Of a stretch of 64,000 nt of DNA, positions 9,493 to 24,659 are shown in pieces. A program made the translations under genes and the position numbers. Location of the stretch: contig CAYYMM010000002.1 of assembly GCA_964472395.1 (NCBI GenBank), forward strand, positions 48,150 to 112,149, read 5' to 3'. Source of the DNA: an uncultured bacterium (GTDB lineage Bacteria; CSSED10-310; CALFER01). The notes beneath the pieces were generated by a model, which made no database searches, was not told the origin of the DNA, and saw nothing but the letters and a program-made list of their open reading frames with translations. How positions within the stretch are numbered: position 1 is the stretch's first letter; each line of letters begins with the position of its first letter.

Positions 9493-10922
9493 TCCGCCGA
9501 ACCGTCACGCTCACATTCATCACATTGCTCCTGTCGGCCTGCATCCACCGTCAACCCTCCCCGACCGACTCGATCAGGAACTATGTCGCAACGGCTTCCT
9601 GGGATCGGTCGGCGTCCTTTGATTTCCAGGAACCGGTTCAGATCACACTGTCGAACGGGTTGAGGGTATTTCTGATCGAACGCGAGGACATTCCGATGGT
9701 GTTTTTCCGGACGCAGGTCCGCGGAGGTTCCATCTATGATCCCCCCGGGAAGGAAGGCCTGGCCTATCTGACCGGCTGGGTCCTGACGGAAGGCGCCGAA
9801 GGAATCCCGGATGAAACGATCGACGCGATGATGGATTCTCGCGGAGCGATTCTGACCTCGCAGGCCTTCAGCGAATCCTGCATCGCCACGCTCACCTGCC
9901 TGAAGAAGGATCTCGGCGATGTCTTTCCGATGTACGCCGGTATCGTGTCGAAGCCCTCACTGGAAGAAACCAAGATCCGGGAATCGATCGGCTACCTGAA
10001 AGGTGATCTCCTCCGCCTGAAGAACGACCTGGGCGAACTCTGCTTCCGCCGCTTCCGCGCCGACGTTTTCGGCGACCACCCCTACTCGAAACCCTACAAG
10101 GGAACGATCGCCGGACTCGATTCCATTGACCGCCGGGATGTTGTCGCGTTTTACGACCGCTATTACCAGCCCTCGGATGCGGTCCTGATCGCAGTGGGGG
10201 CGATCACGGAAACGGAACTCAGAACGCTGTGCGAGAAACACCTGTCCAACTGGACATCGCGCACTGCGGACCCGCTCCCGGAGATCGCTCCGCCCGAACC
10301 CCTTCATGGGATCACCATCCGGATCATCGATCAGGAAGCCGTACAGGCCCAGATCGCACTGGGCCACATCGGCATCGATCGCCGCAATCCTGACCAGTTC
10401 GCCCTGGATGTGCTGAACGAAATTCTCGGCGGAGGCAGTCTCGCGTCGCGCCTGGGCAACGAAGTCCGGGTCAACCGCGGCCTGACATACGGGATCTACA
10501 GTTTTTTTGCCCGGCGTGAGTTTACAGGCGAATTCGCGGTGTCGACCTTCACCAAGGTCGAGTCGGTCGGGCAGGTGGTCGAGGTGATTCTGAACGAATT
10601 GAGAAAAATCCGAGATACAGCGGTTTCGGAGGAGGAACTTCGAGACGCGAAGCAGGGGCTGATCGGGCAGTTTCCGTTGCGTTTCGAGGAGTACGAGGGG
10701 CTGGCCGAGGAAATCAGCTATCTGTATTACAACAATCTGCCGATCGAATACGTCAAAGAGTATTCACAGCGCGTCGCGGCGATCTCCGCCGATGACCTGC
10801 AGCAGGCCGCCCGCACCTATATCGATCCCGACAACCTGACCATCACGGTGGTCGGCCCGGCGGATCGCATCGAACCTCAACTCCGATCGCTCGGCGTCGT
10901 CGAACGCGTCCCGGCGATCTGA
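9489..10922 (+). CDS. M16 peptidase non-catalytic subunit, probable lipoprotein
   Basis: LLSA-C lipobox. No HXXEH. LGGGSLASRL...R..RGLTY motif. ATGA overlap with the upstream gene. Confidence 0.88.
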   Translation: MIRRTVTLTFITLLLSACIHRQPSPTDSIRNYVATASWDRSASFDFQEPVQITLSNGLRVFLIEREDIPMVFFRTQVRGGSIYDPPGKEGLAYLTGWVLTEGAEGIPDETIDAMMDSRGAILTSQAFSESCIATLTCLKKDLGDVFPMYAGIVSKPSLEETKIRESIGYLKGDLLRLKNDLGELCFRRFRADVFGDHPYSKPYKGTIAGLDSIDRRDVVAFYDRYYQPSDAVLIAVGAITETELRTLCEKHLSNWTSRTADPLPEIAPPEPLHGITIRIIDQEAVQAQIALGHIGIDRRNPDQFALDVLNEILGGGSLASRLGNEVRVNRGLTYGIYSFFARREFTGEFAVSTFTKVESVGQVVEVILNELRKIRDTAVSEEELRDAKQGLIGQFPLRFEEYEGLAEEISYLYYNNLPIEYVKEYSQRVAAISADDLQQAARTYIDPDNLTITVVGPADRIEPQLRSLGVVERVPAI

Positions 10923-10940
10923 TCGGAAAGGACCCCTCCC

Positions 10941-12461
10941 ATGACGGACTTCCGGAAACCATCCGATGAAAAAGAACTCGTCGCCATGCTCGATTCGATC
11001 GACGCCCGCCTCGAAGAGATCGGCGCCCGTTCGAGTCTCGCGCACTTCAACCGCCTCACCGGTGCACCTCACGAAGATCTCGAAGCGCTGAATCAGGAAT
11101 CCGCCGCAATCATGCTCAATGCGGATTATCGCGACACGATCGAACACTGGCGCTCCCGATCACTCTCCCCGCGTCTCATGCGCAGACTCGACCTATTCCA
11201 TCGGGCATTCCGGAGCGCTCGGATCGACAACAATCCTGGCCTGTTTGCGCTGGCAAACCGGATTGAAGAAAAGATCATCCGCTTCCAGCCGGAACTCGAC
11301 GGTGTGAAGTTGTCCCGCAGCGATCTGGGCAAGGTGCTGGAAACCGAACCGGATCGAGCCCGGCGAGAGAGAGCCTATCGCGCCAACAAGGCACTCGGCG
11401 AACTGATCGAGCAAGATGTTCTTGAACTGTTCGCATATCGAAACGATCTGGCGAAAGAACTCGGTGCCGCCACCTACGTCGATCTCGGTCTGGAACTCGC
11501 TGACCTGAAGGAATCCGAACTCGATATGCTGTTCGACCAGGTCCGGCTCGCCACCGAGGATCTCTGGAATGACAGCCTGTCCGATATCGCGCATCAACTC
11601 GGCATCGCATCCCCCGCTCCTTGGGATTTCAGCTACTACATCCACTCGGTGCTCCCCTCCCCTCCGATCTCGAAATTCCCCAAAAGCGGCATCATCCCGA
11701 CATTCCGGAAATGGCTCGCGCGCTGCGGCGGCGATTTGGGCAAACTCCCGATCGAGGTCATCGAACAGGACATCCCGTATGGTGGTTTGTGCGTCCCGAT
11801 CCGAATGGGCAAGGACATCCGGATTCTGACAAATCCCCGCGATGGCCTGTCCTGGTACAATATTCTCTTCCACGAATTCGGCCACGGCATCCACGCCAGC
11901 CTGATCGATACGTCCTCACATCTCGTCGCGGGAGGCGATCCGTCCTTCTTCTGGGAGGGGATCGCAGGGGTATTCCAGTGGATCACCGACATGCCGGAAT
12001 TCCTGAAGGACGAGTTCGGGATGACGGATCGTGAGATCGCCGATGTGGTGCGGCAGAACCGGGTCCGGAACATCCTGGGTTACCGGAACATCGCCGTCGC
12101 CTGCCGTCTCGAATGGGCCATCTACCGCCGCACCCCCGATCCCCGGAAGTATCTGGAGAATCTGCTGCGTGACACCATTGGCATCGAGCCGCCGGAACGA
12201 CCCTCCTGGGCCGGCGATACCCTGTACACCACGCACCCGCTTTACCATCAGAATTACCTGCTGATGGATGTCATGGCGACCCAGACGATCGACGCGGTCC
12301 GGCGCTCCTTCGGCACGTATCCGGCCCCGGGGATGTTCGACTTCGTCGTCGATCATTATGTTCGAGACGGTGGATGGAAACCCTGGCGGGACAAGATTGC
12401 CGCGGCAACCGGCTCGCCGCTGACCGCTCAGGCGCTCGGCCACTACCTGACGGATCATTGA
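10941..12461 (+). CDS. Gluzincin metallopeptidase (M3/M2-like), cytoplasmic
   Basis: HEFGH zinc motif followed by FWEGIA third-ligand region. No signal peptide. Confidence 0.8.
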   Translation: MTDFRKPSDEKELVAMLDSIDARLEEIGARSSLAHFNRLTGAPHEDLEALNQESAAIMLNADYRDTIEHWRSRSLSPRLMRRLDLFHRAFRSARIDNNPGLFALANRIEEKIIRFQPELDGVKLSRSDLGKVLETEPDRARRERAYRANKALGELIEQDVLELFAYRNDLAKELGAATYVDLGLELADLKESELDMLFDQVRLATEDLWNDSLSDIAHQLGIASPAPWDFSYYIHSVLPSPPISKFPKSGIIPTFRKWLARCGGDLGKLPIEVIEQDIPYGGLCVPIRMGKDIRILTNPRDGLSWYNILFHEFGHGIHASLIDTSSHLVAGGDPSFFWEGIAGVFQWITDMPEFLKDEFGMTDREIADVVRQNRVRNILGYRNIAVACRLEWAIYRRTPDPRKYLENLLRDTIGIEPPERPSWAGDTLYTTHPLYHQNYLLMDVMATQTIDAVRRSFGTYPAPGMFDFVVDHYVRDGGWKPWRDKIAAATGSPLTAQALGHYLTDH

Positions 12462-12469
12462 TCGCATCG

Positions 12470-15349
12470 ATGAAGGCCGCGCGGATCCTGTCTGTTTGCC
12501 TGTCGGTTCTTCTGATCCCTGTTGTGTCGCATGCCTTCGGGGCAATCAACGTTCGCCTCCTGACCGAGCCGATCTCGGCGGCTGCTGGCATCGACGTCAC
12601 GCTCGAAACCGCCTTTCAGAAACCGATGCGGAATGCGACGGGGCAGACGGGGCAGGCCTGGTTCTTTGAGCTGCCGCCGGGCGATTACACCGTTTCGTTG
12701 ACTCCGGAAGAAGGCCGTCCGCGGCTCCGCATCCCGGTGTCGCTCGGCATCAACGCCGTCATCATCGTCGATGTGTTGTGCAGTGCTTGCGACGATGCCG
12801 ATCGGGTCTGCATCCGCCGTGAAAAACTGCCGGATTCGCCGGCGGTCGTGACGGCATCCGAAATAGACTGGCTGCCGGAAGGCTCGAACCTCACCGGCCT
12901 GTTCCGCTCGGTACCCTGGTCGTTCGGCGAGCAAACCCATCATGTGCTCGGGGGCTCCCCGAACGATCTCGGATTGATCATCGACGGCATGGACCTGAGC
13001 GATCCGGCGGGTCGGGTATGGATTCCGGGATACTCGGTGCAGTCGTTCGATCAGATGCTCCTTCACGGGGTGGCTCTGCCGATCGGCGACACCCCGGATC
13101 GCACGTCGATTCTCGAGATCACCCCTCGTCAGCCCGCGCAGCGTCTCCATCTGTTCGCCCGGTTCAATCAATCTCACGGAGAACTCCTCAACCTGCCAGG
13201 TTCCACACGCCTGATTCAGGGCGGAGATGGGATTGAGTCGGAAGCCGCGCTGGCCGGACCGGTCTGGTCGGATCGGATCTGGTTCATGGGAAGTTTCCGC
13301 GGTCTGGCCCGGGCGTTGCCCGACCCGGAACAGGTCTCGCCGCAGGACAACTGGAGGCAGCATGAATCGGCTGTCACCGGGAACGCCCTGGCGGGTCAGC
13401 TTCTGTTTCGCCTGTTCGATGAACAGCGCGTGAGGATCATGTATGGTCTCGAGGGATATCGGTATGATGACATCGTGCCGACGGACACCAGTTCGCCGGA
13501 TGCCGCGACGGATTTCCTTGTCGAGCGGCCTTTCGGTCTGATCCGCTGGTCCTGGCGCATTTCCCCCCGCTGGAGTCTCGGGGCAATGGCCGGACAGCTG
13601 CTCGACCGGGACGAATCGAGCCCCCGGAACCGGTCACGATCGGATCCGACTGATGCGTCATTTCGGGATATGCGGACCGATCGCTACTACAACAATGGAG
13701 CGAACTGGACAGAAGACGAGCGCAGGCGAATGATCGCGTCCTTCCGGATCCATTACTCCAACGATGACCTCGCGGGCGTCCACCGACTGACTCTCGGAGC
13801 AGGCTGGCAGCGGGACCGGCAGCGGATCGAAGAGACTGCCGCGGGAGGGGCCTGGTATGAGTTTACGGAAACGGACGCGCTTCGTGAGCGCTTGTCGGAC
13901 GAATCCGCAGTTCGCTTGAGAGGCGATTTCTTCCATTTTCATCTCGAAGACAAATGGTATCTTCTCGATCATGTGCTCCTGGAAGTCGGCGTCCAGTACA
14001 ACCGATCGATCTATTATGACAGTCGAGGGGATTCCGCATATCCAGGATGGGAATGGGGTGCATTCAAGGCCGGGGATTATCTGGACGATGACGGTGGGTA
14101 CAAGTGGACGAGTCAGATGAAGTTCGACACGATGTGGGCACCGAGAATCGGCTTCAAATGGGATATCTTCAAGGATAACTGCGCCGTGATCACGGCATCC
14201 TTCAGCCGATACTACGATCCGCTCGATCTGACGTTCCCCCGCGATGTCGAGGCGCGGGCGGGCGAACGCAGGATCCGTGAACGCTATACCGGTCCCGGGT
14301 GGACCGATGCGGACCAGAACGGCATTCCCGATGAACCGCACTTCTTCGCAAATGAAAACTGGAGTCCGGCATCGGGAGATGCTGAACCGGCGACCCTGCT
14401 CATCGATACCGAACTTGCGCCGCCGAGCACCGATGAAGTCGCCGTCGAATATCGTCATGACTGGAAAAACGGCATTCGGCTCTCGACCGGAATGATCGTC
14501 CGGGAAGCCAGTCAGATGATCGAGGATGTCGGGTTGTTCGGCGATGCGGACGGCAACATCGTCTGGACATATCGGGGGGCAGTTGACGCCGAGACCAACG
14601 AAATCAAAGCCGGAAAGCCGTATGATCCGTGCGTGGGCGATTATACCCGACGATACTCCTTCGTGACCAATCTGGAAGGTTCGCAGCGCCGATATTACGG
14701 GTTTCACATTCAGGCCGCCTACGAAGGCAGGAGGGTCAAGCTCCTGGGTGGGTATGTGCTGTCCAACACCATCGGAAAGGTGGTCGGAGTCGATCTCGAA
14801 ACCGGCGATCCAGCCTACCTGACATCGGCATTCGATTCGGTCACGTCATCCCGGAACCGCTGGGGAGATCTTCCCTGGTCGGCCCATCACCACCTGTCCG
14901 CCTCCGCATGGATCCTTGCGTTCGATCACCGCTGGTTCGAATGCCGTCTCGGGATCGCGGGTTACTGGAGGAGCGGATTTGCATCGACAGCATGGGAACC
15001 ACCTCCTCCGACATTCGATCCCGGGAACGCCTCCAACGATTTCGACGATCCCGACACATGGACCGGCACGCCGCCCGATGCTTCGAATTCCGAGATCTGG
15101 TATCCGGACGGTCGGGGCAATCGGAGGCTGGACCCGATCGTCAATGTCGATCTGTCCGTCCGCAACAGTTTTGAATTAGGTCCATCGAGCCGGCTGGGCC
15201 GACTGACTCTCCAGCTCGATGTGATGAATGCCACGAACAACAGGACGTATCGAGAAACCATCGAGGGTGGAGAATGGGCCTCCGACGAGGCTGATCGTCG
15301 CGAGGCATCCTCCCGCTGGTACCGCCTCGGCGTCAGCTATTCGTTCTGA
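12470..15349 (+). CDS. Divergent Oar-like TonB-dependent outer-membrane receptor
   Basis: Signal peptide from ATG 12470. C-terminal RLGVSYSF beta-signal. Shares many blocks with 29305-32319 and 32566-35547 (MKFD.M.APR.G..WD.F, IEDVGLF.D..GNIVWTY.G, GDLPWS..H). Confidence 0.8.
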   Translation: MKAARILSVCLSVLLIPVVSHAFGAINVRLLTEPISAAAGIDVTLETAFQKPMRNATGQTGQAWFFELPPGDYTVSLTPEEGRPRLRIPVSLGINAVIIVDVLCSACDDADRVCIRREKLPDSPAVVTASEIDWLPEGSNLTGLFRSVPWSFGEQTHHVLGGSPNDLGLIIDGMDLSDPAGRVWIPGYSVQSFDQMLLHGVALPIGDTPDRTSILEITPRQPAQRLHLFARFNQSHGELLNLPGSTRLIQGGDGIESEAALAGPVWSDRIWFMGSFRGLARALPDPEQVSPQDNWRQHESAVTGNALAGQLLFRLFDEQRVRIMYGLEGYRYDDIVPTDTSSPDAATDFLVERPFGLIRWSWRISPRWSLGAMAGQLLDRDESSPRNRSRSDPTDASFRDMRTDRYYNNGANWTEDERRRMIASFRIHYSNDDLAGVHRLTLGAGWQRDRQRIEETAAGGAWYEFTETDALRERLSDESAVRLRGDFFHFHLEDKWYLLDHVLLEVGVQYNRSIYYDSRGDSAYPGWEWGAFKAGDYLDDDGGYKWTSQMKFDTMWAPRIGFKWDIFKDNCAVITASFSRYYDPLDLTFPRDVEARAGERRIRERYTGPGWTDADQNGIPDEPHFFANENWSPASGDAEPATLLIDTELAPPSTDEVAVEYRHDWKNGIRLSTGMIVREASQMIEDVGLFGDADGNIVWTYRGAVDAETNEIKAGKPYDPCVGDYTRRYSFVTNLEGSQRRYYGFHIQAAYEGRRVKLLGGYVLSNTIGKVVGVDLETGDPAYLTSAFDSVTSSRNRWGDLPWSAHHHLSASAWILAFDHRWFECRLGIAGYWRSGFASTAWEPPPPTFDPGNASNDFDDPDTWTGTPPDASNSEIWYPDGRGNRRLDPIVNVDLSVRNSFELGPSSRLGRLTLQLDVMNATNNRTYRETIEGGEWASDEADRREASSRWYRLGVSYSF

Positions 15350-15470: not shown

Positions 15471-16763
15471 ATGCATAGTGCGCCGGTTCAGAGCATGCGG
15501 GAAGCACATACGCTTCTTGCCGAGATATCCTTTTCTCCGATCGAGTTGAAACGGGGATATGCTGGCCGATATCTCCGAATCGATCTCTCTCACAACGCGA
15601 TCGACATTCTCCCCGTAACCCAGCAGATGAAGGATCTGTGGATCGGGGGCAAAGGCTTCGACCTTTGGCTGACATTCAAGGAAATCTCTGCCGGAACAAA
15701 GTGGGACAGCCCCGAAAACCCGATCTGTTTTTCATCGGGCCCTCTGGGTGGGACCGCTGCGTTTCCGGGTTCAGGCAAAACACTGGTCACGGCCATCTCG
15801 CCGCAGACATTTTCGATGATGGATTGCAACGTCGGCGGATATTTCGGGCCTTTCCTGAAGTTTGCGGGGTTTGATGCTCTGGTTCTGATCGGGAAGGCGT
15901 CCGAGGAAACGATCTGTGTGATCGATTCCAAAAACGGATCGATCCGAATCGAGACCGCGCCGATGGAAAGCATCGATTCGCATGTCGTGGCGGAAGAATT
16001 GACGGAGATGTATGCCGATGATGAGATGGATAAGCGGAACATCGCGGTGGTGTCCGCGGGCCGGGCTGCCTCGCACGCGAGGATCGGCTGTCTGAACTTT
16101 TCGTTCTATGACTGGCGACGCCGGCTTCCCCGGTTCAAGCAGGCCGGGCGCGGCGGCATCGGCCGGGTTTTCCGCGATAAAAAACTGAAAGCGCTCGTGC
16201 TGAAAAGCCGCCGGATGCAACCGGAATGGACCATTGAAAAAGGCCCCATTCAATATCCCGTCATCGATTCCCCATGTGTCTCGTGTTCATCCGGAAATGA
16301 AACAACTGCCGTCCAGCGGATCGCAGCAGCATACGGATGCAATCCGGATTACGTGAACGAAATGCTCCAGGATATTCAGGACGAGATGCGGTACATCTCG
16401 AAAAGCGCGATCACCGAATTGGGGCGCCTGACCGGAATCCCCCGATCCTATCTGTTCCACATCGCGACATCGTCGGGGTACTTCAGTCTGACTCCGAAAG
16501 GGAAGCATGAGATCAAGGTTTGCATGGGGAATGCCTGCAAGGCCAGGGGATCCGAGAACGTGCTTGAGGCTTTCGAGCGCGAACTCGGTATTCGACGCGG
16601 GGAGACCACTTCCGATCTGCTGTTCAGCATCGAAGGCGTCCCGTGTCTCGGCTGCTGCAATCTCGCCCCCGCCGTCCGTATCGGGCACGATCTCCACGGA
16701 GGGGTCCAGCAGGCGGCTGTCGGCAAACTCCTCAAAAAATATCGCGATGGAGGTCAGGTATGA
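15471..16763 (+). CDS. Fusion of the aldehyde:ferredoxin oxidoreductase (AOR/WOR) N-terminal domain with a NuoE/HydC-like [2Fe-2S] domain
   Basis: GGKG, SGPLGG, TAISPQT, GGYFGPFLKFAGFDALV and AGRGGIG...KKLKALV (AOR_N), then CMGNAC...CLGCC (HydC/NuoE). GGAGG RBS at 15461. Confidence 0.9.
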   Translation: MHSAPVQSMREAHTLLAEISFSPIELKRGYAGRYLRIDLSHNAIDILPVTQQMKDLWIGGKGFDLWLTFKEISAGTKWDSPENPICFSSGPLGGTAAFPGSGKTLVTAISPQTFSMMDCNVGGYFGPFLKFAGFDALVLIGKASEETICVIDSKNGSIRIETAPMESIDSHVVAEELTEMYADDEMDKRNIAVVSAGRAASHARIGCLNFSFYDWRRRLPRFKQAGRGGIGRVFRDKKLKALVLKSRRMQPEWTIEKGPIQYPVIDSPCVSCSSGNETTAVQRIAAAYGCNPDYVNEMLQDIQDEMRYISKSAITELGRLTGIPRSYLFHIATSSGYFSLTPKGKHEIKVCMGNACKARGSENVLEAFERELGIRRGETTSDLLFSIEGVPCLGCCNLAPAVRIGHDLHGGVQQAAVGKLLKKYRDGGQV

Positions 16764-18610
16764 ATCAGCCCAATTCCAGCACGACGGAAACCAATCAGGT
16801 AATCAGCCAGCCCCGGGATTTTCGCGGAGAGTTACTGATCTGTTCGGGTTCGGGCTGCTCGGCCAATGCTTCGGACGAAATCCGCAAGGAACTCGTTCGC
16901 CTGCTATCTGAAAACAACCTCTCGAGCGCTTACAGGATCAGCATCACAGGCTGTCATGGATTCTGCGCCGCAGGGCCGATCATGATCGTTCAGCCGGAGG
17001 GGATCTTCTACCAGAAACTCACGATCAAAGTCCTCGATCGGATCGTCAGGGAGCACCTGGTCGAGGGAAAACCGGTGGAAACACTGCTGTTCAGGCATAC
17101 CGTCGGAACGATCCCGAAACGCGAGGATATTCCCTTCTTCAGCGGACAGGTGCTGATCTCACAGAGAAACAAAGGACTGATCGATCCGGAATCCATCGAT
17201 TCCTACATCGGCCGCGACGGATATCTCGCATTCACCCGGACACTCCGGAACCGACAGCCGGAGGAGGTGATCCAGTCCATCATCGATTCGGGATTACGAG
17301 GCCGCGGCGGCGGTGGATTCCCGACAGGACTCAAATGGCGTGCCTGTCGCGATGCGGCGGTTTCGTCGGGGCTCTCCCCCATCATTGTATGCAATGCGGA
17401 TCACGGCATGATGCAGCTCGAATCCGACCCGCATTCCGTCATCGAGGGCATGCTGATCGGCGCGTTCGCAATCGGTGCGTCCGAAGGCATCATCTACCTT
17501 CGGAACACCTACCATCTCGCGCGGAAACGCCTCGAAATCGCACTCGCACAGGCCACGGAAAAAGGGTTCCTGGGAACCCGGATCGCACAGAGTGGAATGT
17601 CGTTCACCATCCGGATCCACCGGGGCGCCGGAGCGTTTATCGGTGGCGAGTCCTCGTCGGTCATCGCGTCGATTTCGGGATCGATCCCCGAACCGCACGC
17701 CAAGACGATCCGAAATGCTGTGAAAGGTGTTCACGGGCGTCCGACCGTCGTGAACAACGTCGAGACATGGGCGACGGTGCCGGTGATCATGCACAAGGGA
17801 GCGGACTGGTTCGCGGCCATCGGCACGGGAATCCGGAAGGGTGAACCCCTGAGCGGATCGTCAGGAACAAAGGTGTTTTCGCTGATCGGAGACATCACGT
17901 ATCCCGGTCAGATCGAAATCCCGCTCGGGACATCGCTCGGTGATGTCATTACCCGTTTCGGCGGAGGCGTTCCAAGGCAGATTCCCCTGAAAGCCGTACA
18001 GATCGGCGGACCGACCGGCGGATACATCCCGACCTCCCGTCTCGACCTGAAACTCGATTTCGATTCGCTGAAGGCAGCCGGCACGATTCTCGGATCCGGC
18101 GAACTCATTGTCCTGAGTGAAAAGAAGTGTATCGCGGATTCTCTGAAAAACACGATCGAGTTTCTCGCCGACGAATCCTGCGGCCAGTGTACGCCCTGTC
18201 GCGAGGGTTTGAATGTTGCACGGAGTATTCTCCGCCGGATCACGGAAGGCAACGCCACGACGGATGATCTCGATGGTCTGCGCGAACTGGCTCTGACGAT
18301 GCGAGAGACGAGCATGTGTCAGTTCGGTGTGACGGCCGCCAATCCGATCCTCACCGCGCTCGACTCGTTCCTGCCCGAACTGCGTGCTCATATCGATCAG
18401 AAGAGATGCCCCGCGCGAGTCTGCAAGTCGCTGATCCGCTATGAAATCAATGCTGAGCGTTGTACGGGGTGCACGATGTGTGCGCGCGCCTGTCCGGTAT
18501 CGGTCATTTCGGGTGAACGGAAAAAACCCCACCGGATCGATTCAACGCGTTGCATTCGATGTGGAACCTGTTTTGAAGTGTGCAAGTTCGACGCAGTGGA
18601 GGTGAAATAG
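16760..18610 (+). CDS. NuoF/HydB(BfuB)-like subunit with degenerate FMN/NAD(H) site
   Basis: N-terminal CSGSGC...GCHGFC [2Fe-2S]. GLRGRGGGGFPTGLKW, ESCGQCTPCREG, H..QKRCPARVC and two C-terminal [4Fe-4S] motifs. ATGA overlap with the upstream gene. Confidence 0.9.
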   Translation: MNQPNSSTTETNQVISQPRDFRGELLICSGSGCSANASDEIRKELVRLLSENNLSSAYRISITGCHGFCAAGPIMIVQPEGIFYQKLTIKVLDRIVREHLVEGKPVETLLFRHTVGTIPKREDIPFFSGQVLISQRNKGLIDPESIDSYIGRDGYLAFTRTLRNRQPEEVIQSIIDSGLRGRGGGGFPTGLKWRACRDAAVSSGLSPIIVCNADHGMMQLESDPHSVIEGMLIGAFAIGASEGIIYLRNTYHLARKRLEIALAQATEKGFLGTRIAQSGMSFTIRIHRGAGAFIGGESSSVIASISGSIPEPHAKTIRNAVKGVHGRPTVVNNVETWATVPVIMHKGADWFAAIGTGIRKGEPLSGSSGTKVFSLIGDITYPGQIEIPLGTSLGDVITRFGGGVPRQIPLKAVQIGGPTGGYIPTSRLDLKLDFDSLKAAGTILGSGELIVLSEKKCIADSLKNTIEFLADESCGQCTPCREGLNVARSILRRITEGNATTDDLDGLRELALTMRETSMCQFGVTAANPILTALDSFLPELRAHIDQKRCPARVCKSLIRYEINAERCTGCTMCARACPVSVISGERKKPHRIDSTRCIRCGTCFEVCKFDAVEVK

Positions 18611-18612
18611 CC

Positions 18613-20601
18613 ATGGCCGAAAAAATCACGATCCGAATCAATGGAAACGCGATCAAAGCGACACGGGGAGCGAACCTGCTCAAGGTGCTCCAGGAGAACG
18701 GCTACGACATCCCCACCCTGTGCGCTCACAAGGATCTCTCACCGGGCGGGACCTGCAGGATGTGCCTGGTCGAACTGGAATCGAGCGGAGTTCGATCCCT
18801 GGTGACATCGTGCAACTGTACCGTTGATGCCGACATCGATGTTTTTACGGAATCCGAGCCGGTTATCCGGAACCGAAAACGGCTCGCCGAACTGTATCTC
18901 GGTCGTTTCCCGAACGTCCCCGTCATCCGGGAACTCGCCGCGCGGTGTGGCGTGGCTTCCTCACGTTTCAGTTCGCCGGTGACCGATCCGAATCCGCGTG
19001 CCTGCATCCTGTGCGGGCGCTGCGTCCGGGCCTGCAAGGAATTCGTGATCGAACGGATCCTCGATTTTGCAGGAAAAGGGATCAACCGGCATGTCGCGAT
19101 GCCCTTCAATGAAATGGACGAGCACTGCGTGGGTTGCTCATCGTGCGCTTACGTCTGTCCGACCGGCGCCATACGAATCGTCGACGATCTGAATCAGCCT
19201 GTGAATCCGCAACTCATCCGTGATCACGGGATGAAGGTGAACGCCGAGATGGCAACACTCGATAAGGCGCAGAACCGGATGCGGGAAGTGGGGACGGCCA
19301 ACATCGTCGAAGTCATGGACAAGTATGAACTGCTGCCTGTCATGAATTACCGATTCGGATCTCACCCCGATACCCCGAAGATCGACTCGAAAGTCCTGAA
19401 AAGCCGATACTTCACGCAGGAAATGGCCGATGGCTGCTGGCGGGGTTGCTCGATGGCCTGCGCTAAAGCCGTCGATAACTACACGCTTCGGACCGGACCT
19501 TATAAAGGCCAGAAGGTCTGCGTGGATGGTCCCGAATATGAGACATCCGGCGGAGGCGCCAACATGGGATGTTTCGATCCGGATTTCATCGTCGAATACA
19601 ATTTCTACTGCGATACGTATGGCATCGACACGATCAGTTTCGCCACGACGATGGGTTTCGTGATGGAGGCTTTCGAGGCGGGGCAGATCACGGAACACCA
19701 CACGGGTGGATTGAAACTCAATTTCGGAGCTGTCGACGATGCGCTCGAAGTCCTGCATCAGATGGCGCGAGGTAAGGGATTCGGCGTGGATGTCGGCCAG
19801 GGAATCCGGTGGCTCAAAGAGAAATGGGTGCGCGAGTACGGCGCGGACCGGCAGTTCCTGCAGGATATCGGCATGGAATGCAAAGGACTGGAGGTCTCCG
19901 AGTATCTACCGAAGGAATCACTGGCCCAGCAGGCCGGATACGGACTTGCGATCAAGGGACCGCAACACGATGAAGCCTGGCTCATCTTCATGGACATGGT
20001 CAACAACCAGATTCCCACATTTGAGGACAAGGCTGAAGCCCTGTACTACTTCCCCCTTTTCCGGACATGGTTCGGCCTCATGGGATTGTGCAAGATCATC
20101 TGGAACGATGTCGTTCCGGCCAACAACAAATTCGAAAAAGAAGCTGCCAAGATCCCCGATCATGTGAACAACTATTTCAAATACTGGGAAGGGATGACCG
20201 GAATTCCTCTGAATGAGGAAAGCATGCTGCTGCAATCCGCTCGCGTTTATAACCTGCAACGTGTCATGAGTGTTCTGTTGGGGTACGGGACTCGCGAGTA
20301 TGATCGAATGCCGTATCGCGGCATGGGCCCCGTCACACCTCCCGAGTATGAATGGCGCAAGGACTATTTCGACAAACAACTCAGGGATATTCTCGGAGTC
20401 GACCCCGAGGGCAAGTCGACGGAGGAGAAGATCCGGATATTGCGGGCACACCGTGAAGACCAGTATGAGAAAGTCACGGATGTCGTCTATCGGAGGCGCG
20501 GATGGACGAAGAACGGCGTTCCGAAATTGAGCCGCCTCAAAGAACTCGGAATCGATCTGCCGGAAATCGTGGCCATCGTCAAGGATCGACAGGACGACTG
20601 A
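18613..20601 (+). CDS. Fusion of a NuoG/HydA-like N-terminal Fe-S module with the AOR/WOR C-terminal (tungstopterin/[4Fe-4S]) domains
   Basis: PTLC...GTCRMC...TSC [2Fe-2S], CILCGRCVRAC and CVGCSSCAYVCP, then GCWRGCSMAC, GPEYE, CDTYGIDTIS, GPQHD, GLC and YRRRGW..NGVP. Confidence 0.9.
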   Translation: MAEKITIRINGNAIKATRGANLLKVLQENGYDIPTLCAHKDLSPGGTCRMCLVELESSGVRSLVTSCNCTVDADIDVFTESEPVIRNRKRLAELYLGRFPNVPVIRELAARCGVASSRFSSPVTDPNPRACILCGRCVRACKEFVIERILDFAGKGINRHVAMPFNEMDEHCVGCSSCAYVCPTGAIRIVDDLNQPVNPQLIRDHGMKVNAEMATLDKAQNRMREVGTANIVEVMDKYELLPVMNYRFGSHPDTPKIDSKVLKSRYFTQEMADGCWRGCSMACAKAVDNYTLRTGPYKGQKVCVDGPEYETSGGGANMGCFDPDFIVEYNFYCDTYGIDTISFATTMGFVMEAFEAGQITEHHTGGLKLNFGAVDDALEVLHQMARGKGFGVDVGQGIRWLKEKWVREYGADRQFLQDIGMECKGLEVSEYLPKESLAQQAGYGLAIKGPQHDEAWLIFMDMVNNQIPTFEDKAEALYYFPLFRTWFGLMGLCKIIWNDVVPANNKFEKEAAKIPDHVNNYFKYWEGMTGIPLNEESMLLQSARVYNLQRVMSVLLGYGTREYDRMPYRGMGPVTPPEYEWRKDYFDKQLRDILGVDPEGKSTEEKIRILRAHREDQYEKVTDVVYRRRGWTKNGVPKLSRLKELGIDLPEIVAIVKDRQDD

Positions 20602-20605
20602 GTGC

Positions 20606-21253
20606 ATGTCGGCGAACGTCGATATCTTTGAGCGAAACGTACCGGATCAGACGAACGCGTTGCGGGAAGCGACCGTCGGCATCGCGGGATGCGGGGGACT
20701 GGGATCCAACATCGCCGTATCGCTTGTTCGTGCCGGCATCGGACGCCTCATCCTGGTCGATTTCGACCGGGTCGAACCCTCGAATCTCAATCGCCAGCAC
20801 TTCTACCTGTCTGACATCGGGCAACTGAAAGTCGAGGCCTTGAGTCGGCATCTGACCGCTATCAATCCGGATGTCAGAATTCATTCGCATCCTGAACGGC
20901 TCGATGCGGAACGGACACCGATTGTGTTCCGGGAAGCGGATTTATTGATAGAGGCTTTCGATCGGGCCGAGAGCAAGAAGTGGTTGATCGAGGCCTGGTG
21001 CGCAGCCTATCCGGACCGACCGATCATCTGTGGAAACGGCTTGTCTGGCGCTGGTGACACCGAATCGCTTCGTGTACTGAAAATGGGTAACATCACCATG
21101 TGCGGTGATGGACGAACGGACATGGCAATCGGATTGAGCGCGCCGAGAGTGGCGATCGTTGCGGCCATGCAGGCAAACGAAGCCGTTGCGTACTTCTTGA
21201 AATGCCATGCGGCGTGCAGGGCTGCGTCCGAAAGGGAGCGGGAGGGTCGATGA
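20606..21253 (+). CDS. thiF: Sulfur carrier protein adenylyltransferase ThiF/MoeB-like
   Basis: GIAGCGGLGS, DFDRVEPSNLNRQ, EAFD motifs. Confidence 0.88.
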   Translation: MSANVDIFERNVPDQTNALREATVGIAGCGGLGSNIAVSLVRAGIGRLILVDFDRVEPSNLNRQHFYLSDIGQLKVEALSRHLTAINPDVRIHSHPERLDAERTPIVFREADLLIEAFDRAESKKWLIEAWCAAYPDRPIICGNGLSGAGDTESLRVLKMGNITMCGDGRTDMAIGLSAPRVAIVAAMQANEAVAYFLKCHAACRAASEREREGR

Positions 21254-21447
21254 TCCGAGTCAATGGAGAATTATTGGAGTGGACGGAGGGTATGACCGTT
21301 CAAGACATGTTGAATAAAAAAGGTTACGACTTTGCGTTGATCATCGTCACGATCAATGACCGGCTGATACCCGACGATGAGTATGAGGAAACCCAGATAC
21401 CGGATCAGGCCGATGTCAAAGCCCTGCACATTCACCACGGTGGTTGA
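21250..21447 (+). CDS. thiS: ThiS/MoaD-like ubiquitin-fold sulfur carrier
   Basis: 65 aa, I.VNG start, C-terminal GG. ATGA overlap with thiF. Confidence 0.88.
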   Translation: MIRVNGELLEWTEGMTVQDMLNKKGYDFALIIVTINDRLIPDDEYEETQIPDQADVKALHIHHGG

Positions 21448-21465: not shown

Positions 21466-22764
21466 TTAAACCCGTGGGATCCGGTTGATTTCCTCCAGCA
21501 GTTCAAATGGTGTGGCGAATCGTTCTTCCGGTCGTCGTCGCGTCAGTTTGTTGATCATCGTGCAGAACACGGGCGACAGATTCCGGTTGAGGGTGGGATC
21601 CAGAATCGCCTCGTCCCCGTCAAGTCTCGCGAGGATCGACGCGTACGGAGATTCACGTTCATAAGGGTTTGTGCCGGTCACCGCGTGATGGATGGTAAGC
21701 CCCAGCGAGTACAGGTCTGCTCGGATATCAATCGGGCGGGCATCCAGAACCTGTTCCGGCGCAAGATACCCCGGCGTACCGACGACATGGCCGATCGTCG
21801 TAGCCGTGCGATCGATCATGCGTCTCGATATCCCGAGATCCCCTAATTTGGCCTGCCATGAATCCGTCACGAAGATATTGCCAGGTTTGACATCCCGATG
21901 CAGCACCTGATGATCGTGCAAGTGATTCAGGGCCCGGGCGATGCATTCGATCAACGACATCGCCTCCGATTCCTTCAACCAGATCCCTGACCTTATGATG
22001 GCCTGCAGTGTTCTTCCAGGGACGTACTCCATGATCTGATAAATAAAATCGGGTGTGCGTTTTATTTCGAGAATCTGAACGAGACATGGGTGAGGAGGCA
22101 GTTCCAATCCAATGAGTGCGCCGCGGAAAAAACGCTGCAGATCGCGTACATTCCCCAGTTGAGACGGTTTGATGACTTTGACGGCGACCGATTCGTTCGT
22201 CGCCTTGTTCAAAGCTCGAAACACGGCGCCGGTGGCTCCCGATCCGATTTTTTCGACCATCGTGTACGCCGGTAGAAATGCATCCGCGGTTTTTCCGTCC
22301 GGAGTATCCGAAGACGTCATGGGATGCGTCGACTCGGAAGCCGTCGATTCCGCATGACGGATGTGCACTTTGATCTTCGCCCTGAGGATCGATTCGGGAA
22401 CCGGTTTATGCAGATAGTCATCCGCGCCGGAATCGTATGCCCTCAGGATCGAATTCTCACTGGAATCGCTCGAGTAGAAAAGCACCGGTACATCAAACTG
22501 ATGATGCAATTTAATCACTGCACAGGTTTCGTAACCGTCGTGACCTTTCAATTGATCGGAGATGATGATCAGGCTGGGTGATTCCCGTTGGGTTAGTCGG
22601 ACCAGGCGATAACTGTCGGGAGTGGTGATGACGTGATAACCCGAATTTCTGAGATATGAGGCGGTCAGGCTGAGATCTGCAAGATTGGAATCGCCGATGA
22701 GAATGACCGGTATCGACCGGGTCTTCGGATCTGTCTGATTATCGATCTGATGACGTTCCTCCAC
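21466..22764 (-). CDS. Receiver (REC)-domain Ser/Thr protein kinase
   Basis: N-terminal REC-like domain ending DYLHKP. Kinase motifs GSGATGAV, VAVK, HRDVKPGN, DLG, GTPGYLAPE. GTG start. Confidence 0.9.
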   Translation of the reverse strand: MEERHQIDNQTDPKTRSIPVILIGDSNLADLSLTASYLRNSGYHVITTPDSYRLVRLTQRESPSLIIISDQLKGHDGYETCAVIKLHHQFDVPVLFYSSDSSENSILRAYDSGADDYLHKPVPESILRAKIKVHIRHAESTASESTHPMTSSDTPDGKTADAFLPAYTMVEKIGSGATGAVFRALNKATNESVAVKVIKPSQLGNVRDLQRFFRGALIGLELPPHPCLVQILEIKRTPDFIYQIMEYVPGRTLQAIIRSGIWLKESEAMSLIECIARALNHLHDHQVLHRDVKPGNIFVTDSWQAKLGDLGISRRMIDRTATTIGHVVGTPGYLAPEQVLDARPIDIRADLYSLGLTIHHAVTGTNPYERESPYASILARLDGDEAILDPTLNRNLSPVFCTMINKLTRRRPEERFATPFELLEEINRIPRV

Positions 22765-23135
22765 CTTGGCCTCCCGGACGGCTCGAAGGCCGGTCCTCTC
22801 TGACGGAAGGAATCATAGAACACATCATGCATGGGAGCAAGCCGGTGTGCTTCGTCGGAAATACGGATTAGAACCGGGGTAAAAAGAGAGCGCCTCCGGA
22901 GTATGGCCGAAGGCGCTGGGAGGAAAGGGTGAGTGGTGGTTAAACTCACACATTAGTTTGATAAAGCAATTTCAATGCCAGTTTTCGATGTCTCGATATA
23001 GCTTCTTCCCTGTATGAAAAAATCGCAACATGGGATCCCGCTGGGGAATCCCCTCCTCAAAATAGAATCGCGGTTGGGAGACTACACCCCAGTATGGGGT
23101 TATCCCGGCCAATCGGAGGCACCTGGCGGGTTGAC

Positions 23136-23164
23136 TTGAGAATCGGAAGGGAATGTCCTATGAT
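23136..23164 (+). promoter_or_regulatory. Sigma-70 type promoter for the SHMT-like gene
   Basis: TTGAGA-N17-TATGAT about 50 nt upstream of the start codon. Confidence 0.6.
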
Positions 23165-23213
23165 ATTAGGCCGATCCATAACGGAATGGATCCGAACTGC
23201 ACGGAGGTTCTGC

Positions 23214-24659
23214 ATGACTCAGTTTATAGAAAAAGTATCGCATCTGGTGTCCCGCGCCGTCGCCAACAACACATGGAGGCAGCATCATTGCCTCAATCTG
23301 ATTCCATCCGAAACGACACCGAGTCTTCTCGTGAAGATGTGTGAAATTTCCGATCCCGCCGGCCGTTATGCCGAACATCGTACGATGAAGGGACGCGAAG
23401 TCTATTTTTATCAGGGAACCGATTTCATTCGAGATGTTGAGATCGAGTGTCAGGCCGCTATGGGAGAATTTTTCGGATGCTCGCAGGCTGAACTCAGGCC
23501 GATCTCCGGTCAGATGGCCAATGAAGTCGTCTTCAAAGGCGTCACCAAGTTTCTGAACAAGCGGGACAACACGGAATTCCGCCGGATCCGGGCCGTCATG
23601 AACAACGATCTCGGGAAAGGCGGGCATCTCTCCAGCCAACCCATGGGTGCCCTGTTCAATTACGTCGATCCGGATCCCGCCTCCAAGAAAGAAAATTGCA
23701 TCAACTTCCCGATTCAGGCCGGGAATCCCTATCGGATCGATGTCCCAAAGCTTCTTGAAATCGTCCATGATGCCAAACCGGAACTGGTCGTTTTCGGCAA
23801 GAGCATGTTCATCTGTCCGGAACCGGTGCGTGAGTTTTACAATGTGGTAAAAGATTGGGAAAACCGGCCGATCATCATGTTCGATATGGCCCACGTTCTC
23901 GGACTGTACGGCGCTTTTCAGACTCCGTTGCAGGAAGGTGCAGACATCGTGACCGGTTCGACTCACAAAACCTTTTTCGGACCGCAGCGCGGGGTGATCG
24001 TATCGAATTTCGACAAGAACCACCCGTTTCGGCCGCTCTGGGTCGAGATCAAATCGAGGGCGTTCCCGGGTTCGACATCGAACCACCATCTCGGTACGTT
24101 GCTTGCGCTCCTCATGGCGACGCACGAGATGAACGAATTCAAGACCGAGTATCAAACCCAGGTATGTCGCAACGCCCGCGCATTTGCGCAAGCGCTGGTC
24201 CGCGCCGGCATGACCGTCGAAGGCGATGCCTCAGAAGGATACACGCATACTCATCAGGTTCTGCTCAGAGTCATCCAGCATGGCGATGGTGAAGCCATCG
24301 CACGCCGGTTGGAGGAGAACAACATCGTTTGCAACTATCAGGCCCTTCCAGACGATGAAACTTTCCTGAAATCCAGCGGATTACGGTTGGGCGTTCAGGA
24401 GATGACCCGATATGGCATGGTTGAATCTGATTTTGATGCCATCGCGGGATTCATCGCCGATGTCGTCATCCGAAACGCGAATGTGAGACAGGCGGTGAGC
24501 GATTTCCGCCGCAAGTTCCTCATCCAAACCTTCTGTCTGCCTGCGAAGCAGTCACTGGAATTCGGAGCTCAACTCCTGGCGACCGTTCTCCCCTCCTCCA
24601 CCTACGCGACTGAATTCGCGAATAACCTCCATTCACTCGCTCATACTCTCCCCGCCTGA
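23214..24659 (+). CDS. glyA: Serine hydroxymethyltransferase-family PLP enzyme (divergent)
   Basis: LNLIPSE, RYAE, YQG, GGHL, DMAHVLG, GSTHKTFFGPQRG (PLP Lys), SGLRLG. GGAGG RBS before ATG 23214. Confidence 0.75.
   Translation: MTQFIEKVSHLVSRAVANNTWRQHHCLNLIPSETTPSLLVKMCEISDPAGRYAEHRTMKGREVYFYQGTDFIRDVEIECQAAMGEFFGCSQAELRPISGQMANEVVFKGVTKFLNKRDNTEFRRIRAVMNNDLGKGGHLSSQPMGALFNYVDPDPASKKENCINFPIQAGNPYRIDVPKLLEIVHDAKPELVVFGKSMFICPEPVREFYNVVKDWENRPIIMFDMAHVLGLYGAFQTPLQEGADIVTGSTHKTFFGPQRGVIVSNFDKNHPFRPLWVEIKSRAFPGSTSNHHLGTLLALLMATHEMNEFKTEYQTQVCRNARAFAQALVRAGMTVEGDASEGYTHTHQVLLRVIQHGDGEAIARRLEENNIVCNYQALPDDETFLKSSGLRLGVQEMTRYGMVESDFDAIAGFIADVVIRNANVRQAVSDFRRKFLIQTFCLPAKQSLEFGAQLLATVLPSSTYATEFANNLHSLAHTLPA

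Follow-up and report, generated by a model that had tools for sequence, protein, structure and literature searches.

A split tungsten- or molybdenum-type aldehyde oxidoreductase predicted to be built from two subunits of a Bfu-like core in uncultured anaerobes

The window analyzed here, 64,000 nucleotides of DNA from an uncultured bacterium, carries on its plus strand three coupled genes over which the parts of an aldehyde oxidoreductase (AOR) are distributed. Gene 1 (15471-16763, 430 aa) encodes AOR domain 1 and a NuoE/BfuC domain, gene 2 (16760-18610, 616 aa) a full BfuB-type flavoprotein, and gene 3 (18613-20601, 662 aa) a WorA-like Fe-S domain followed by AOR domains 2-3, such that 2.4 kb of coding sequence separate the AOR N and C domains. 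An AGGAGG Shine-Dalgarno sequence lies 6 nt 5′ of gene 1, and each of the three genes has its own GGAGG box. The ATG of gene 2 overlaps the stop codon of gene 1 (ATGA), and the TAG of gene 2 is separated from the start of gene 3 by 2 nt; the ORF coordinates thus bear out the reading frames and couplings of the preliminary description. No second AOR gene was found within the window.

The operon continues past gene 3, which had not been noted before. After a 4-nt gap there follows a gene for a ThiF-family adenylyltransferase (20606-21253, plus strand; Pfam ThiF 2e-38; NCBIfam NF006395 at 220.8 bits, cut-off 159), and overlapping it by ATGA a gene for a ThiS-like small protein (21250-21447, plus strand; Pfam ThiS 1.3e-7; TIGR01683 at 46.6 bits, cut-off 37.45). 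The ThiF gene is found 3′ of the split operon in most loci, and the ThiS-like gene lies downstream of split and unsplit relatives alike. Judged by its sequence, the ThiF-family gene is a probable pterin-cofactor accessory gene, and the ThiS-like protein is the equivalent of "WorX", a described neighbor of WOR genes (PMC13328260). Both products would be helpers in cofactor maturation, not subunits.

Within gene 1, AOR/WOR domain 1, which forms the saddle base for the pterin, occupies residues 1-250 (15471..16220, plus strand) and begins with a clade-specific extension of 28 residues. Residues 32-245 match AFOR_N (PF02730/IPR013983; Pfam 1.8e-46), residues 29-251 align with residues 3-210 of P. 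furiosus AOR (1aor), and the AF2 model of the domain resembles domain 1 of 4z3w_A, 1aor_A and 9mqx_D in Foldseek. K103, N120 and G226-R227-G228-G229 are invariant across the split family, in which the cofactor-contact residues of this domain are also conserved, and the KKLKALVLKS segment previously placed near its end was located at residues 237-246. There follows a tether of about 25 residues (residues ~251-275; 16221..16295, plus strand), which is probably flexible: its pLDDT is below 50 (residues 250-273), and in the family alignment it is unconserved and variable in length. The remainder (residues 276-430; 16296..16763, plus strand) is a NuoE/HydC/BfuC-like, thioredoxin-like [2Fe-2S] domain for cluster C1. 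It matches 2Fe-2S_thioredx/NuoE at residues 282-425 (Pfam 3e-36), 8a6t_C (2e-31) and WorC (9mqx_C, 5.9e-31; Foldseek TMt 0.84, rmsd 1.9), and its C351, C356, C392 and C396, the BfuC [2Fe-2S] C1 set, are invariant. Thus, the assignment of gene 1 as an AOR N-domain joined to HydC/NuoE stands.

The first 191 residues of gene 3 (18613..19185, plus strand) form a BfuA/WorA-like Fe-S domain with sites for one [2Fe-2S] cluster (A1) and two [4Fe-4S] clusters (A2 and A4). Pfam recognizes Fer2_4 at residues 3-81 and two Fer4 domains at residues 127-188, and the ligand sets C37/48/51/67, C131/134/137/141 and C172/175/178/182 are invariant in the family. The best PDB match of residues 2-193 is WorA (9mqx_A, 7e-34; 35% identity by Foldseek), and no His-Cys3 motif for cluster A3 was found in this domain. 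WorA itself carries A1, A2 and A4, but no A3 (PMC12318220). Hence, of the earlier assignment of gene 3 as a HydA/NuoG-type Fe-S domain plus AOR C-domains, the domain composition holds up, but the Fe-S part is WorA-like, and by its sequence the core appears closer to WorCBA, with a BfuA lacking A3, than to the hydrogenase HydA.

AOR/WOR domains 2-3, with [4Fe-4S] ligands, pterin motifs and catalytic residues, begin at about residue 192 (nucleotide 19186), where their onset had been placed before, and extend to the end of the gene (residues 192-662; 19186..20601, plus strand). Residues 208-647 are recognized as AFOR_C (PF01314/IPR001203; Pfam 1.1e-86), the C part aligns with 1aor residues 238-601, and Foldseek matches it to 1b25_A, 9mqx_D and 1aor_A over about 470 columns. 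The domain-model E-values for the two AOR halves, 1e-46 for AFOR_N and 1e-87 for AFOR_C, are far beyond chance. In contrast to the tethered domain 1, domains 2-3 are fused directly to the C-terminus of the Fe-S domain, via a conserved, gap-free junction in which D191, P196, I202, R203, G206, M207 and other residues are invariant. The motifs listed in the preliminary description were all found: GCWRGCSMAC (residues 274-283), GPEYE (306-310), CDTYGID (333-339) and GLC (491-493).

Gene 2 (16760..18610, plus strand) was correctly taken as HydB/NuoF, and its Pfam and PDB matches place it with bifurcating BfuB/HydB-type flavoproteins. It is built of an N-terminal [2Fe-2S] domain, an FMN domain, SLBB, a helical domain for the [4Fe-4S] cluster B1 and a C-terminal 2x[4Fe-4S] domain (Pfam: Complex1_51K, SLBB, NADH_4Fe-4S and two C-terminal Fer4; N-terminal 2Fe-2S_thioredx weak). 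The best PDB matches run end to end along bifurcating 7t2r_B (7e-176), 7q4v_B (1e-170) and WorB (9mqx_B, 2e-161), as compared to about 1e-77 for non-bifurcating NuoF. Cysteine sets for B1, B3, B4 and B5 are present (C28/C33/C65/C69, C474/C477/C480/C520, C568/571/574/578 and C598/601/604/608), and an RCPAxxC pair (C550, C555) with its preceding His, candidate ligands of a B2/Zn site, aligns with 7t2r_B; by the Bfu definition, non-bifurcating BfuB homologs lack B2-B5.

This design is not a peculiarity of one genome. Among the 80 GTDB species loci retained, our survey for the same gene order found AOR-N/NuoE, NuoF and NuoG-N/AOR-C in 60, spread over many phyla, and each chimeric protein forms more than 120 protein clusters at 90% identity with a uniform Pfam architecture. 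The split AOR is therefore a common design in uncultured anaerobes and a large family, not a one-off. The module between the halves varies: about half of the loci have genes 1 and 2 joined into one, and a few (L020, L052, L053) are without the FMN domain but retain the split AOR. Both AOR halves are under strong purifying selection (dN/dS of the window against locus L081: 0.048 for gene 1, 0.145 for gene 2 and 0.026 for gene 3).

Single-chain relatives of about 720 aa (L061-L080, P0249, P0251) share 51-62% identity with both halves and match them residue for residue in order. Residues 1-250 of gene 1 correspond to residues 2-251 of the L061 protein, and residues 192-660 of gene 3 to its residues 253-724; the alignment proposed earlier as a check is thus seamless, with nothing lost. 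The unsplit proteins share the N-terminal extension, the Cx3Cx3C spacing, the WFGLxGLCK motif and the ThiS/ThiF neighbors, but they are single polypeptides without a Bfu module and would rank as Class I WORs. Their best NCBIfam model, the YdhV-type NF007354, scores about 100-110 bits where the cut-off is 868, and we found no characterized member of this clade. In neighbor-joining trees of each half, with a distant AOR as the root, the 44 split and 19 unsplit sequences form separate sister clades. Since this sister clade is the same for N and C, an origin of the halves from different clades is not borne out. Sequence pairs that are more alike in the N half also tend to be more alike in the C half (r=0.57 for the pairwise identities, Mantel 0/2000).

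The shared gene order, the seamless mapping, the common sister clade, the co-variation, the retained residues and the selection support the reading put forward at the outset, a hydCBA cassette lying in frame within an AOR gene. A bfuCBA cassette may have entered the gene of a single-chain AOR, about 720 aa long, precisely between domains 1 and 2, though insertion is one of several evolutionary routes to the same end state. Furthermore, the split may have arisen more than once: a divergent lineage of split enzymes (P0254/L082; 41-44% identity) shows no greater affinity to the main split clade than to the unsplit AORs.

The closest known system is WorABCSL, the Class IV WOR (Acetomicrobium mobile WOR1, PDB 9mqx; Eubacterium limosum WOR1), in which an AOR unit likewise sits on a BfuABC/HydABC-type core. 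The likeness extends to the cluster set of the WorA-like domain, which is identical, to the WorB and WorC homologs and to the ThiS-like WorX gene in the operon. In WorABCSL, however, WorL is one chain of 604 aa joined via a separate polyferredoxin, WorS, which is recruited by a helix adaptor on WorA, and each WorABC bears three WorSL. In the present operon, a separate full-length WorL is absent: the protein is divided between domains 1 and 2, the first being joined to WorC and domains 2-3 taking the position of the Zn finger and adaptor of WorA. No WorS gene was found in the five-gene operon or in or beside the core genes of the 60 related loci. The AOR halves, only about 20-26% identical to AmWorL, belong to a different and longer clade.

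The 2026 WOR classification takes as its criterion that both AOR domains lie in one WorL polypeptide (PMC13328260), and the split family, with these domains on genes 1 and 3, is thereby excluded from it. A description of the split design was not found in the literature searched, including that classification, the 2022 Bfu survey, the 2025 WorABCSL structure paper and the 2025 tungsten-enzyme review, in agreement with the earlier statement that no characterized enzyme with this topology is known.

Type 1 Bfu enzymes (the HydABC [FeFe]-hydrogenase, Fdh-Bfu) also have a conserved BfuBC core and a catalytic domain C-terminal to the BfuA Fe-S domain, but there BfuA carries the entire catalytic domain and has clusters A3 and A5, whereas the BfuA described here resembles Type 2 in lacking both, and a third of the catalytic unit is on BfuC. 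In the Class II benzoyl-CoA reductase BamBCDEFGHI, the tungsten AOR subunit BamB (4z3w_A), the best match of the gene 1 N-domain model, works with the NuoEFG-like BamGHI; it differs in being a single chain with a BamC partner, Hdr-like subunits and a different chemistry. What sets the operon apart is an AOR catalytic protein cut in two, with its halves fused to different NuoEFG/HydABC-type subunits. For the division of a pterin-enzyme cofactor fold between two polypeptides there is a precedent in FwdB/FwdD of formylmethanofuran dehydrogenase, though this belongs to the DMSO reductase family, not AOR, and its pieces are unfused to subunits of an electron-transfer core.

Taken together, we consider it likely (probability about 0.72) that these five genes form a genuine, conserved operon for a tungsten (or molybdenum) bis-pyranopterin AOR/WOR unit put together from two polypeptides on a BfuCBA core. 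The conservation of both halves suggests that they rebuild one active site, for which domain 1 would dock onto domains 2-3. Electrons from the substrate at the W-pterin would then pass via the AOR [4Fe-4S] cluster and clusters A4, A2 and A1 of BfuA, a path proposed from the route seen in WorABCSL, into the BfuB/BfuC core. In the family majority with intact BfuB, ferredoxin, reached via B3/B4, and a pyridine nucleotide at the FMN may accept the electrons, as in bifurcating WOR1. Judged by the retained counterparts of P. furiosus T243, E313, Y427 and H448, the enzyme would catalyze aldehyde oxidation or carboxylate reduction.

A possible alternative, though clearly the less probable one, is that no bifurcation takes place, and that the Bfu-like module serves only as a built-in Fe-S wire on which ferredoxin docks, or else as a simple diaphorase, with ferredoxin alone as the acceptor in the window. 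When BfuB was aligned with 7t2r_B and with 44 family BfuBs, its conserved CNADEGDPGAFMDR NADH/FMN loop turned out to carry a 7-residue deletion (site at gene 2 residues 211-217, CNADHGM; 17390..17410, plus strand): the window reads CNADHG-------MMQLE, as compared to CNADEGDPGAFMDRSI in 7t2r_B and 36 of the 45 family BfuBs. The identical deletion is present in L081 and L041, and loop deletions occur in nine of the 45. Thus, the NAD(H)/FMN site, intact in most of the family, is not intact in the window, although GRGGGGF and NNVETW are kept. The whole family moreover has GES(T/S)AL and SMSG in place of GEETAL and SIEG of canonical BfuB/NuoF, and its use of a nucleotide appears uncertain. BfuBs from lineages with the deletion share 41-51% identity with intact BfuBs, which reach 71% among themselves, while the AOR halves of these lineages stay at 60-74%; BfuB in the window's lineage hence evolves faster than the AOR halves. 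The three loci without an FMN domain point in the same direction, as the module evidently can work without NAD, and according to the 2025 review WOR1 has been shown only to distribute electrons to ferredoxin and NAD+, without an endergonic step. Against this stand the canonical loop in most BfuBs, the presence of all Fe-S sites in the N- and C-terminal cluster domains that distinguish Bfu from NuoF/FdsB, and a dN/dS of 0.096 for the window's FMN domain. Purifying selection on BfuB argues for a functional core, and the loop deletion makes NAD-linked bifurcation doubtful for the window's enzyme, in whose lineage the NAD(H) branch was probably altered or lost. The window's enzyme has the Fe-S sites and the BfuB match of an electron-bifurcating-type core, but bifurcation itself should not be assumed for this member.

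A chemistry other than aldehyde/acid interconversion, for which aromatic ring reduction by BamB is a precedent in the AOR family, seems unlikely to us. It would fit with the mere 20-26% identity of the split clade to any characterized AOR, with about 120 extra residues, with NCBIfam equivalogs that all score below cut-off, and with two changed motifs: the cluster spacing is Cx3Cx3C rather than Cx2Cx3C, and pterin motif 2, the second of the two DxxGL(C/D) motifs, reads G-L-x-G-L-C493, with Gly for the Asp of other AORs, both in split and unsplit clades. Nevertheless, T228, C275, C279, C283, E310, D334, G337, D339, Y431, H452 and C493 of gene 3 are conserved in 44 of 44 split sequences. These comprise the [4Fe-4S] ligands C275, C279, C283 and C493 (P. 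furiosus C288, C291, C295 and C494), pterin motif 1 (D334-x-x-G337-x-D339), and T228, E310, Y431 and H452, the counterparts of P. furiosus T243, E313, Y427 and H448, said to mark aldehyde-oxidizing WORs (PMC13328260).

It is very unlikely that domain 1 docks instead onto domains 2-3 of a neighboring BfuCBA, so that domain-swapped dimers or filaments would form in place of a closed heterotrimer. The disordered tether would allow this, and the related tungsten enzymes AorAB and WorSL build nanowire-like oligomers, but positive support for swapping was not found, and genes 1 and 2 encode one chain in about half of the loci with the halves unchanged. A tether of 25 residues also suffices to dock domain 1 intramolecularly when BfuC lies next to BfuA, as it does in established HydABC and WorABC structures. 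At its boldest, and we regard this as a long shot, the two-polypeptide reading would define a sixth structural class of tungsten oxidoreductase, with a composite site across two subunits of a bifurcating core. Closure of domain 1, tethered to BfuC with its cluster domain mobile in the Bfu cycle, onto domains 2-3 held rigidly on BfuA would in that case gate cofactor loading or catalysis, or would link neighboring cores in trans into larger assemblies. A chimeric assembly, or a decaying AOR gene broken by a mobile cassette, can be dismissed: we found no evidence for it, the gene 3 protein (99% identical) is on eight independently assembled contigs, all five genes recur in a second genome with 92.8% identical DNA, the order is common to 60 species-level loci, the frames are intact, each with a Shine-Dalgarno box and dN/dS of 0.03-0.15, and the flanks of the operon are without repeats, transposase or a break in composition.

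As for the metal of the pterin cofactor, the sequence is compatible with tungsten as well as molybdenum. An indirect hint at such a cofactor comes from genes for a tungstate/molybdate-type, ModA/WtpA-like ABC transporter, MoeA and MobA-like proteins, which adjoin the operon in 4-9 of the 60 loci.

The catalytic unit of an AOR-type enzyme is distributed in the window over the outer two of three tightly coupled genes, each of which is preceded by a GGAGG-type ribosome-binding site. Gene 1 (15471-16763, forward strand, 430 aa) encodes an AOR N-domain (Pfam AFOR_N, aa 32-245, 1.8e-46) joined to a NuoE-type thioredoxin-like [2Fe-2S] domain (aa 282-425, 3e-36). Its stop overlaps, as ATGA, the start of gene 2 (16760-18610, forward strand, 616 aa), which carries the NuoF FMN domain, SLBB, NADH_4Fe-4S and a C-terminal 2x[4Fe-4S] ferredoxin domain, with a weak match to an N-terminal [2Fe-2S] domain. 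Gene 3 (18613-20601, forward strand, 662 aa) begins 2 nt past the gene 2 stop and combines Fer2_4 and two Fer4 motifs with AFOR_C (aa 208-647, 1.1e-86). Downstream in the same operon lie genes for a ThiF-family protein (20606-21253) and a ThiS-like protein (21250-21447), which are on the forward strand, are recognized by Pfam and score above their NCBIfam cut-offs. The gene coordinates, the junctions, the Pfam domains and the motif positions confirm the preliminary description, which had reported a split AOR with a HydC-HydB-HydA(N) module fused into the break, and every motif that it cited was found in its place. Genes 1-3 and their unsplit relatives reach no NCBIfam equivalog cut-off. A promoter scan over the operon yielded 0 promoter-like sites, terminator-like sites were fewer there than expected from shuffled sequence, and an RNA scan of the whole window, covering Moco/Wco riboswitches and others, returned nothing at gathering score. 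Judged from its sequence, the feature is best supported as a WOR-Bfu enzyme with a split and doubly fused catalytic subunit and without WorS, belonging to a widespread and uncharacterized family.

AOR and WOR enzymes are conventionally viewed as having a single catalytic chain, and the split family departs from this view. Gene 1 aa 29-251 align with residues 3-210 of Pyrococcus furiosus AOR (1aor), which we take to be AOR domain 1 (Chan et al. 1995), and the C-terminal part of gene 3 aligns with residues 238-601. In AlphaFold2 models, gene 1 comprises AOR domain 1 and a BfuC fold (TMt 0.84 to 9mqx_C, a chain of the Acetomicrobium mobile enzyme WorABCSL), connected by a segment (aa 250-273) with pLDDT <50, and gene 3 comprises a WorA-like Fe-S domain followed by AOR domains 2-3, with about 470 columns aligned to 1b25, 9mqx_D and 1aor. 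All 44 split sequences retain T228, E310, Y431 and H452 (T243, E313, Y427 and H448 in P. furiosus numbering), the clustered C275, C279 and C283 with the distal C493, and D334, G337 and D339 of the first pterin motif. In the N half, K103, N120 and a GRGG segment are invariant and align with R76, N93 and R182 of 1aor, which presumably contact the pterin phosphates and Mg. The cluster motif has the form Cx3Cx3C and the second pterin motif has Gly for Asp; both deviations also occur in the unsplit sister clade and therefore are not due to the split. Compared between the window and its 93%-identical relative, gene 1 has a dN/dS of 0.048, gene 2 of 0.145 and gene 3 of 0.026, with 0.013 in the AOR-C part. 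Such strong constraint on both halves is as expected if they still form one cofactor site, and the two halves are presumed to associate physically. The split AOR presents a natural experiment, in which a pterin active site is divided exactly at a domain boundary.

The electron-transfer core resembles those of bifurcating enzymes. Over its entire length, gene 2 aligns with bifurcating BfuB proteins of known structure (7t2r_B, 7e-176; 7q4v_B; WorB, 9mqx_B, 2e-161), as compared to about 1e-77 for non-bifurcating NuoF, and its Cys sets include those of the N-terminal [2Fe-2S] cluster, of B1 and of the two C-terminal clusters. It is by these extra BfuB clusters that Bfu proteins are told apart from their non-bifurcating homologs (Schut et al. 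2022). The Fe-S domain of gene 3 is closest to WorA of WorABCSL (7e-34) and has the same clusters, namely the [2Fe-2S] cluster A1 and two [4Fe-4S] clusters, without the His-ligated A3. Electrons travel along S4-A4-A2-A1 in WorABCSL (PMC12318220). In gene 3, AOR domains 2-3 start at the position that the Zn finger and the WorS-recruiting helix occupy in WorA, and the Fe-S/AOR junction is gap-free and conserved. This arrangement, together with the lack of WorS, suggests that electrons would likely pass from the W-pterin via the AOR [4Fe-4S] cluster and A4-A2-A1 to BfuB/BfuC. The split family illustrates how a tungsten enzyme can be connected to a Bfu core without the WorS nanowire.

The closest characterized system is Class IV WOR (WorLSABC), with which the window shares homologs of WorA, WorB and WorC as well as WorX. 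However, it lacks two of the features that define this class, since it has neither WorS nor a WorL of full length on its own. Within the Bfu scheme, the enzyme resembles Type 1 in carrying a catalytic domain on BfuA, and Type 2 in that its BfuA is without A3 and A5, whereas the placement of one third of the catalytic unit on BfuC is found in no described type; it is a hybrid. The 2026 WOR classification, with five classes and 92 clades, selected WorL by the presence of IPR013983 and IPR001203 in one protein (PMC13328260), and the split family was therefore excluded by construction. A WorL that is split or fused is mentioned nowhere in the searched text of the 2022 Bfu survey, of the 2025 paper on the WorABCSL structure and of the 2025 review on tungsten enzymes, and further, non-exhaustive text searches of the literature were likewise empty.

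The split AOR is a widespread family and not an accident. The gene 3 protein occurs on 8 independently assembled contigs, and a second genome (GCA_036722415.1) has the same five genes at 92.8% DNA identity. Protein searches returned more than 120 clusters (at 90% identity) for each of the chimeric proteins, with uniform Pfam architecture. When one genome of each GTDB species was scanned, at least 584 relatives of the N half, unsplit ones among them, were confirmed; the order AOR-N/NuoE, NuoF, NuoG-N/AOR-C is found in 60 of the best 80 of these, usually with ThiF and ThiS next. The MAGs with this order are labeled Aminicenantes, Elusimicrobia, Fermentibacteria, Krumholzibacteriota, Eisenbacteria, Myxococcota, Cloacimonadota, Syntrophomonadaceae, Sumerlaeota, KSB1, Bdellovibrionales and Pirellulales, among others. 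All 80 best loci come from MAGs, with no cultured host among them. This family, present in many phyla of uncultured anaerobes, is invisible to the 2026 classification. In databases, the chimeric proteins are called 'NAD(P)H-dependent oxidoreductase subunit E' or '(2Fe-2S)-binding protein', names that conceal from metabolic reconstruction what is probably an aldehyde/acid redox enzyme.

The remaining 20 of the 80 loci bear on the origin of the split. Their AORs are single chains of 719-740 aa with 51-62% identity to both halves, and here, too, ThiS is next in most loci, with or without ThiF. With one of them (L061), the mapping is seamless: gene 1 aa 1-250 correspond to its aa 2-251, and gene 3 aa 192-660 to its aa 253-724. 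Split (n=44) and unsplit (n=19) sequences were reciprocally monophyletic in neighbor-joining trees of the N half and of the C half, which were rooted with a distant AOR, carry no support values and have limited sampling. Furthermore, the two halves co-vary in their pairwise identities (r=0.57; Mantel 0/2000). The outgroup was another, distantly related AOR in one chain, with about 25-27% identity, encoded directly upstream of the split operon in a Syntrophomonadaceae MAG (L037:4921-6576). Seamless mapping, reciprocal monophyly and co-variation are as predicted if a bfuCBA cassette interrupted a single-chain AOR gene in frame, and they support the cassette insertion proposed in the preliminary description, where colinearity with single-chain AORs was named as a check. 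The same end state would be reached by gene fission with subsequent recruitment and fusion, and the data fit both routes. Intermediates, i.e., a gene for AOR-C only or a BfuA joined to a full AOR, were absent among complete proteins when protein lengths were surveyed in representatives at 50% identity; P0256 (FG-GAP with AFOR_C) and several short matches look like fragments or chimeras. One divergent BfuA-N/AOR-C fusion, P0254 (651 aa; L082:2-2589), follows a BfuB C-terminus, is 41-44% identical and lies roughly equidistant from the main split clade and the unsplit AORs. It may have branched off early or may have been split independently, and a single origin therefore is not proven. An unsplit relative, P0250 (862 aa), carries an insertion of about 115 residues within AFOR_C, from about position 471 to about 587.

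The Bfu module is less constant than the AOR halves. The NADH/FMN loop of BfuB, which we take to supply the acidic residues that bind FMN and NADH (as in Nqo1 of complex I), has the canonical form CNADEGDPGAFMDRSI in 36 of 45 family members. In the window, the conserved loop sequence CNADEGDPGAFMDR is shortened by a 7-residue in-frame deletion at 17390-17410 (gene 2 aa 211-217), giving CNADHG-------MMQLE as in L081, the locus of the 93%-identical relative, and in L041, and six other loci have different deletions in the same loop. GES(T/S)AL and SMSG stand throughout the family where the canonical sequences are GEETAL and SIEG. The window BfuB shares 51% identity with intact BfuBs, as compared to 71% among the latter, and the window's AOR halves are as conserved as those of other members (66% and 70%). 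This BfuB evolves faster than the AOR halves, with purifying selection persisting (dN/dS 0.145; 0.096 for the FMN domain). In about half of the loci (L004, L007, L009, L011, L012, L014, L015, L018, L019, L021, L024, L026, L027, L032, L034-L037, L047 and others), genes 1 and 2 form one reading frame for a chain of about 1070 aa (AOR-N, BfuC, BfuB), such that the enzyme consists of two polypeptides, not three. The N-terminal domain of BfuB is absent from L022 (6989-9706, lacking the [2Fe-2S] domain), L046, L048 and L050; in L055 (7001-9358) and L056, half of the NuoE domain and the whole C-terminal ferredoxin domain are missing; L020 (8287-9177) has a BfuB without FMN and SLBB domains; and L052 (6917-9115) and L053 (5306-7393) lack the FMN domain. 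All of these variants keep the split AOR, which is thus the constant part, the flavin/NAD part being dispensable in some lineages. For the core of the family, our model therefore remains that of a bifurcating WOR, and we regard the NAD branch of the window's enzyme as doubtful, given its loop. The series of variants, from intact BfuB through deletions in the NADH loop to loss of the FMN domain, could help to separate the role of the Bfu module as a wire from its role in bifurcation.

Compared with the neighbors of related loci, the window has no conserved companions other than ThiF and ThiS. In 4-9 of 60 loci (L014, L026, L032, L011, L021, L015 and others), divergent genes 0.2-5 kb upstream encode a ModA/WtpA-like binding protein, a permease, a TOBE-domain ABC ATPase, MoeA and a YqeC-MobA-like protein, as well as a small MobB-like P-loop protein without Pfam match. 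These likely are tungstate/molybdate uptake and cofactor genes, which accompany the operon in a minority of genomes, and the ModA/WtpA-like, MoeA and MobA-like genes fit what is expected for a W/Mo-pterin enzyme. The peptidases of families M16 and M3, the outer-membrane barrel, the receiver-kinase and the SHMT-like protein encoded near the operon in the window do not adjoin it elsewhere and were rejected as parts of the system; no clue to the substrate came from the window's neighbors. Directly downstream and convergent with the operon lies a fusion of a response-regulator receiver with a Ser/Thr protein kinase (21466-22764, reverse strand), which is also present in L081 and is not a conserved neighbor elsewhere. 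An SHMT-family protein encoded farther along (23094-24659) has 521 aa and thereby exceeds the usual serine hydroxymethyltransferases by about 100 residues, though part of this excess may stem from an over-long ORF call. Clustered upstream (8119-15349) are secreted-protease-type genes for two subunits of M16 peptidases, an M3-like peptidase and an outer-membrane beta-barrel protein of 991 aa, and downstream (27133-29208) is one for a 691-aa papain-family peptidase. These genes around the operon hint at a proteolytic, amino-acid-fermenting lifestyle.
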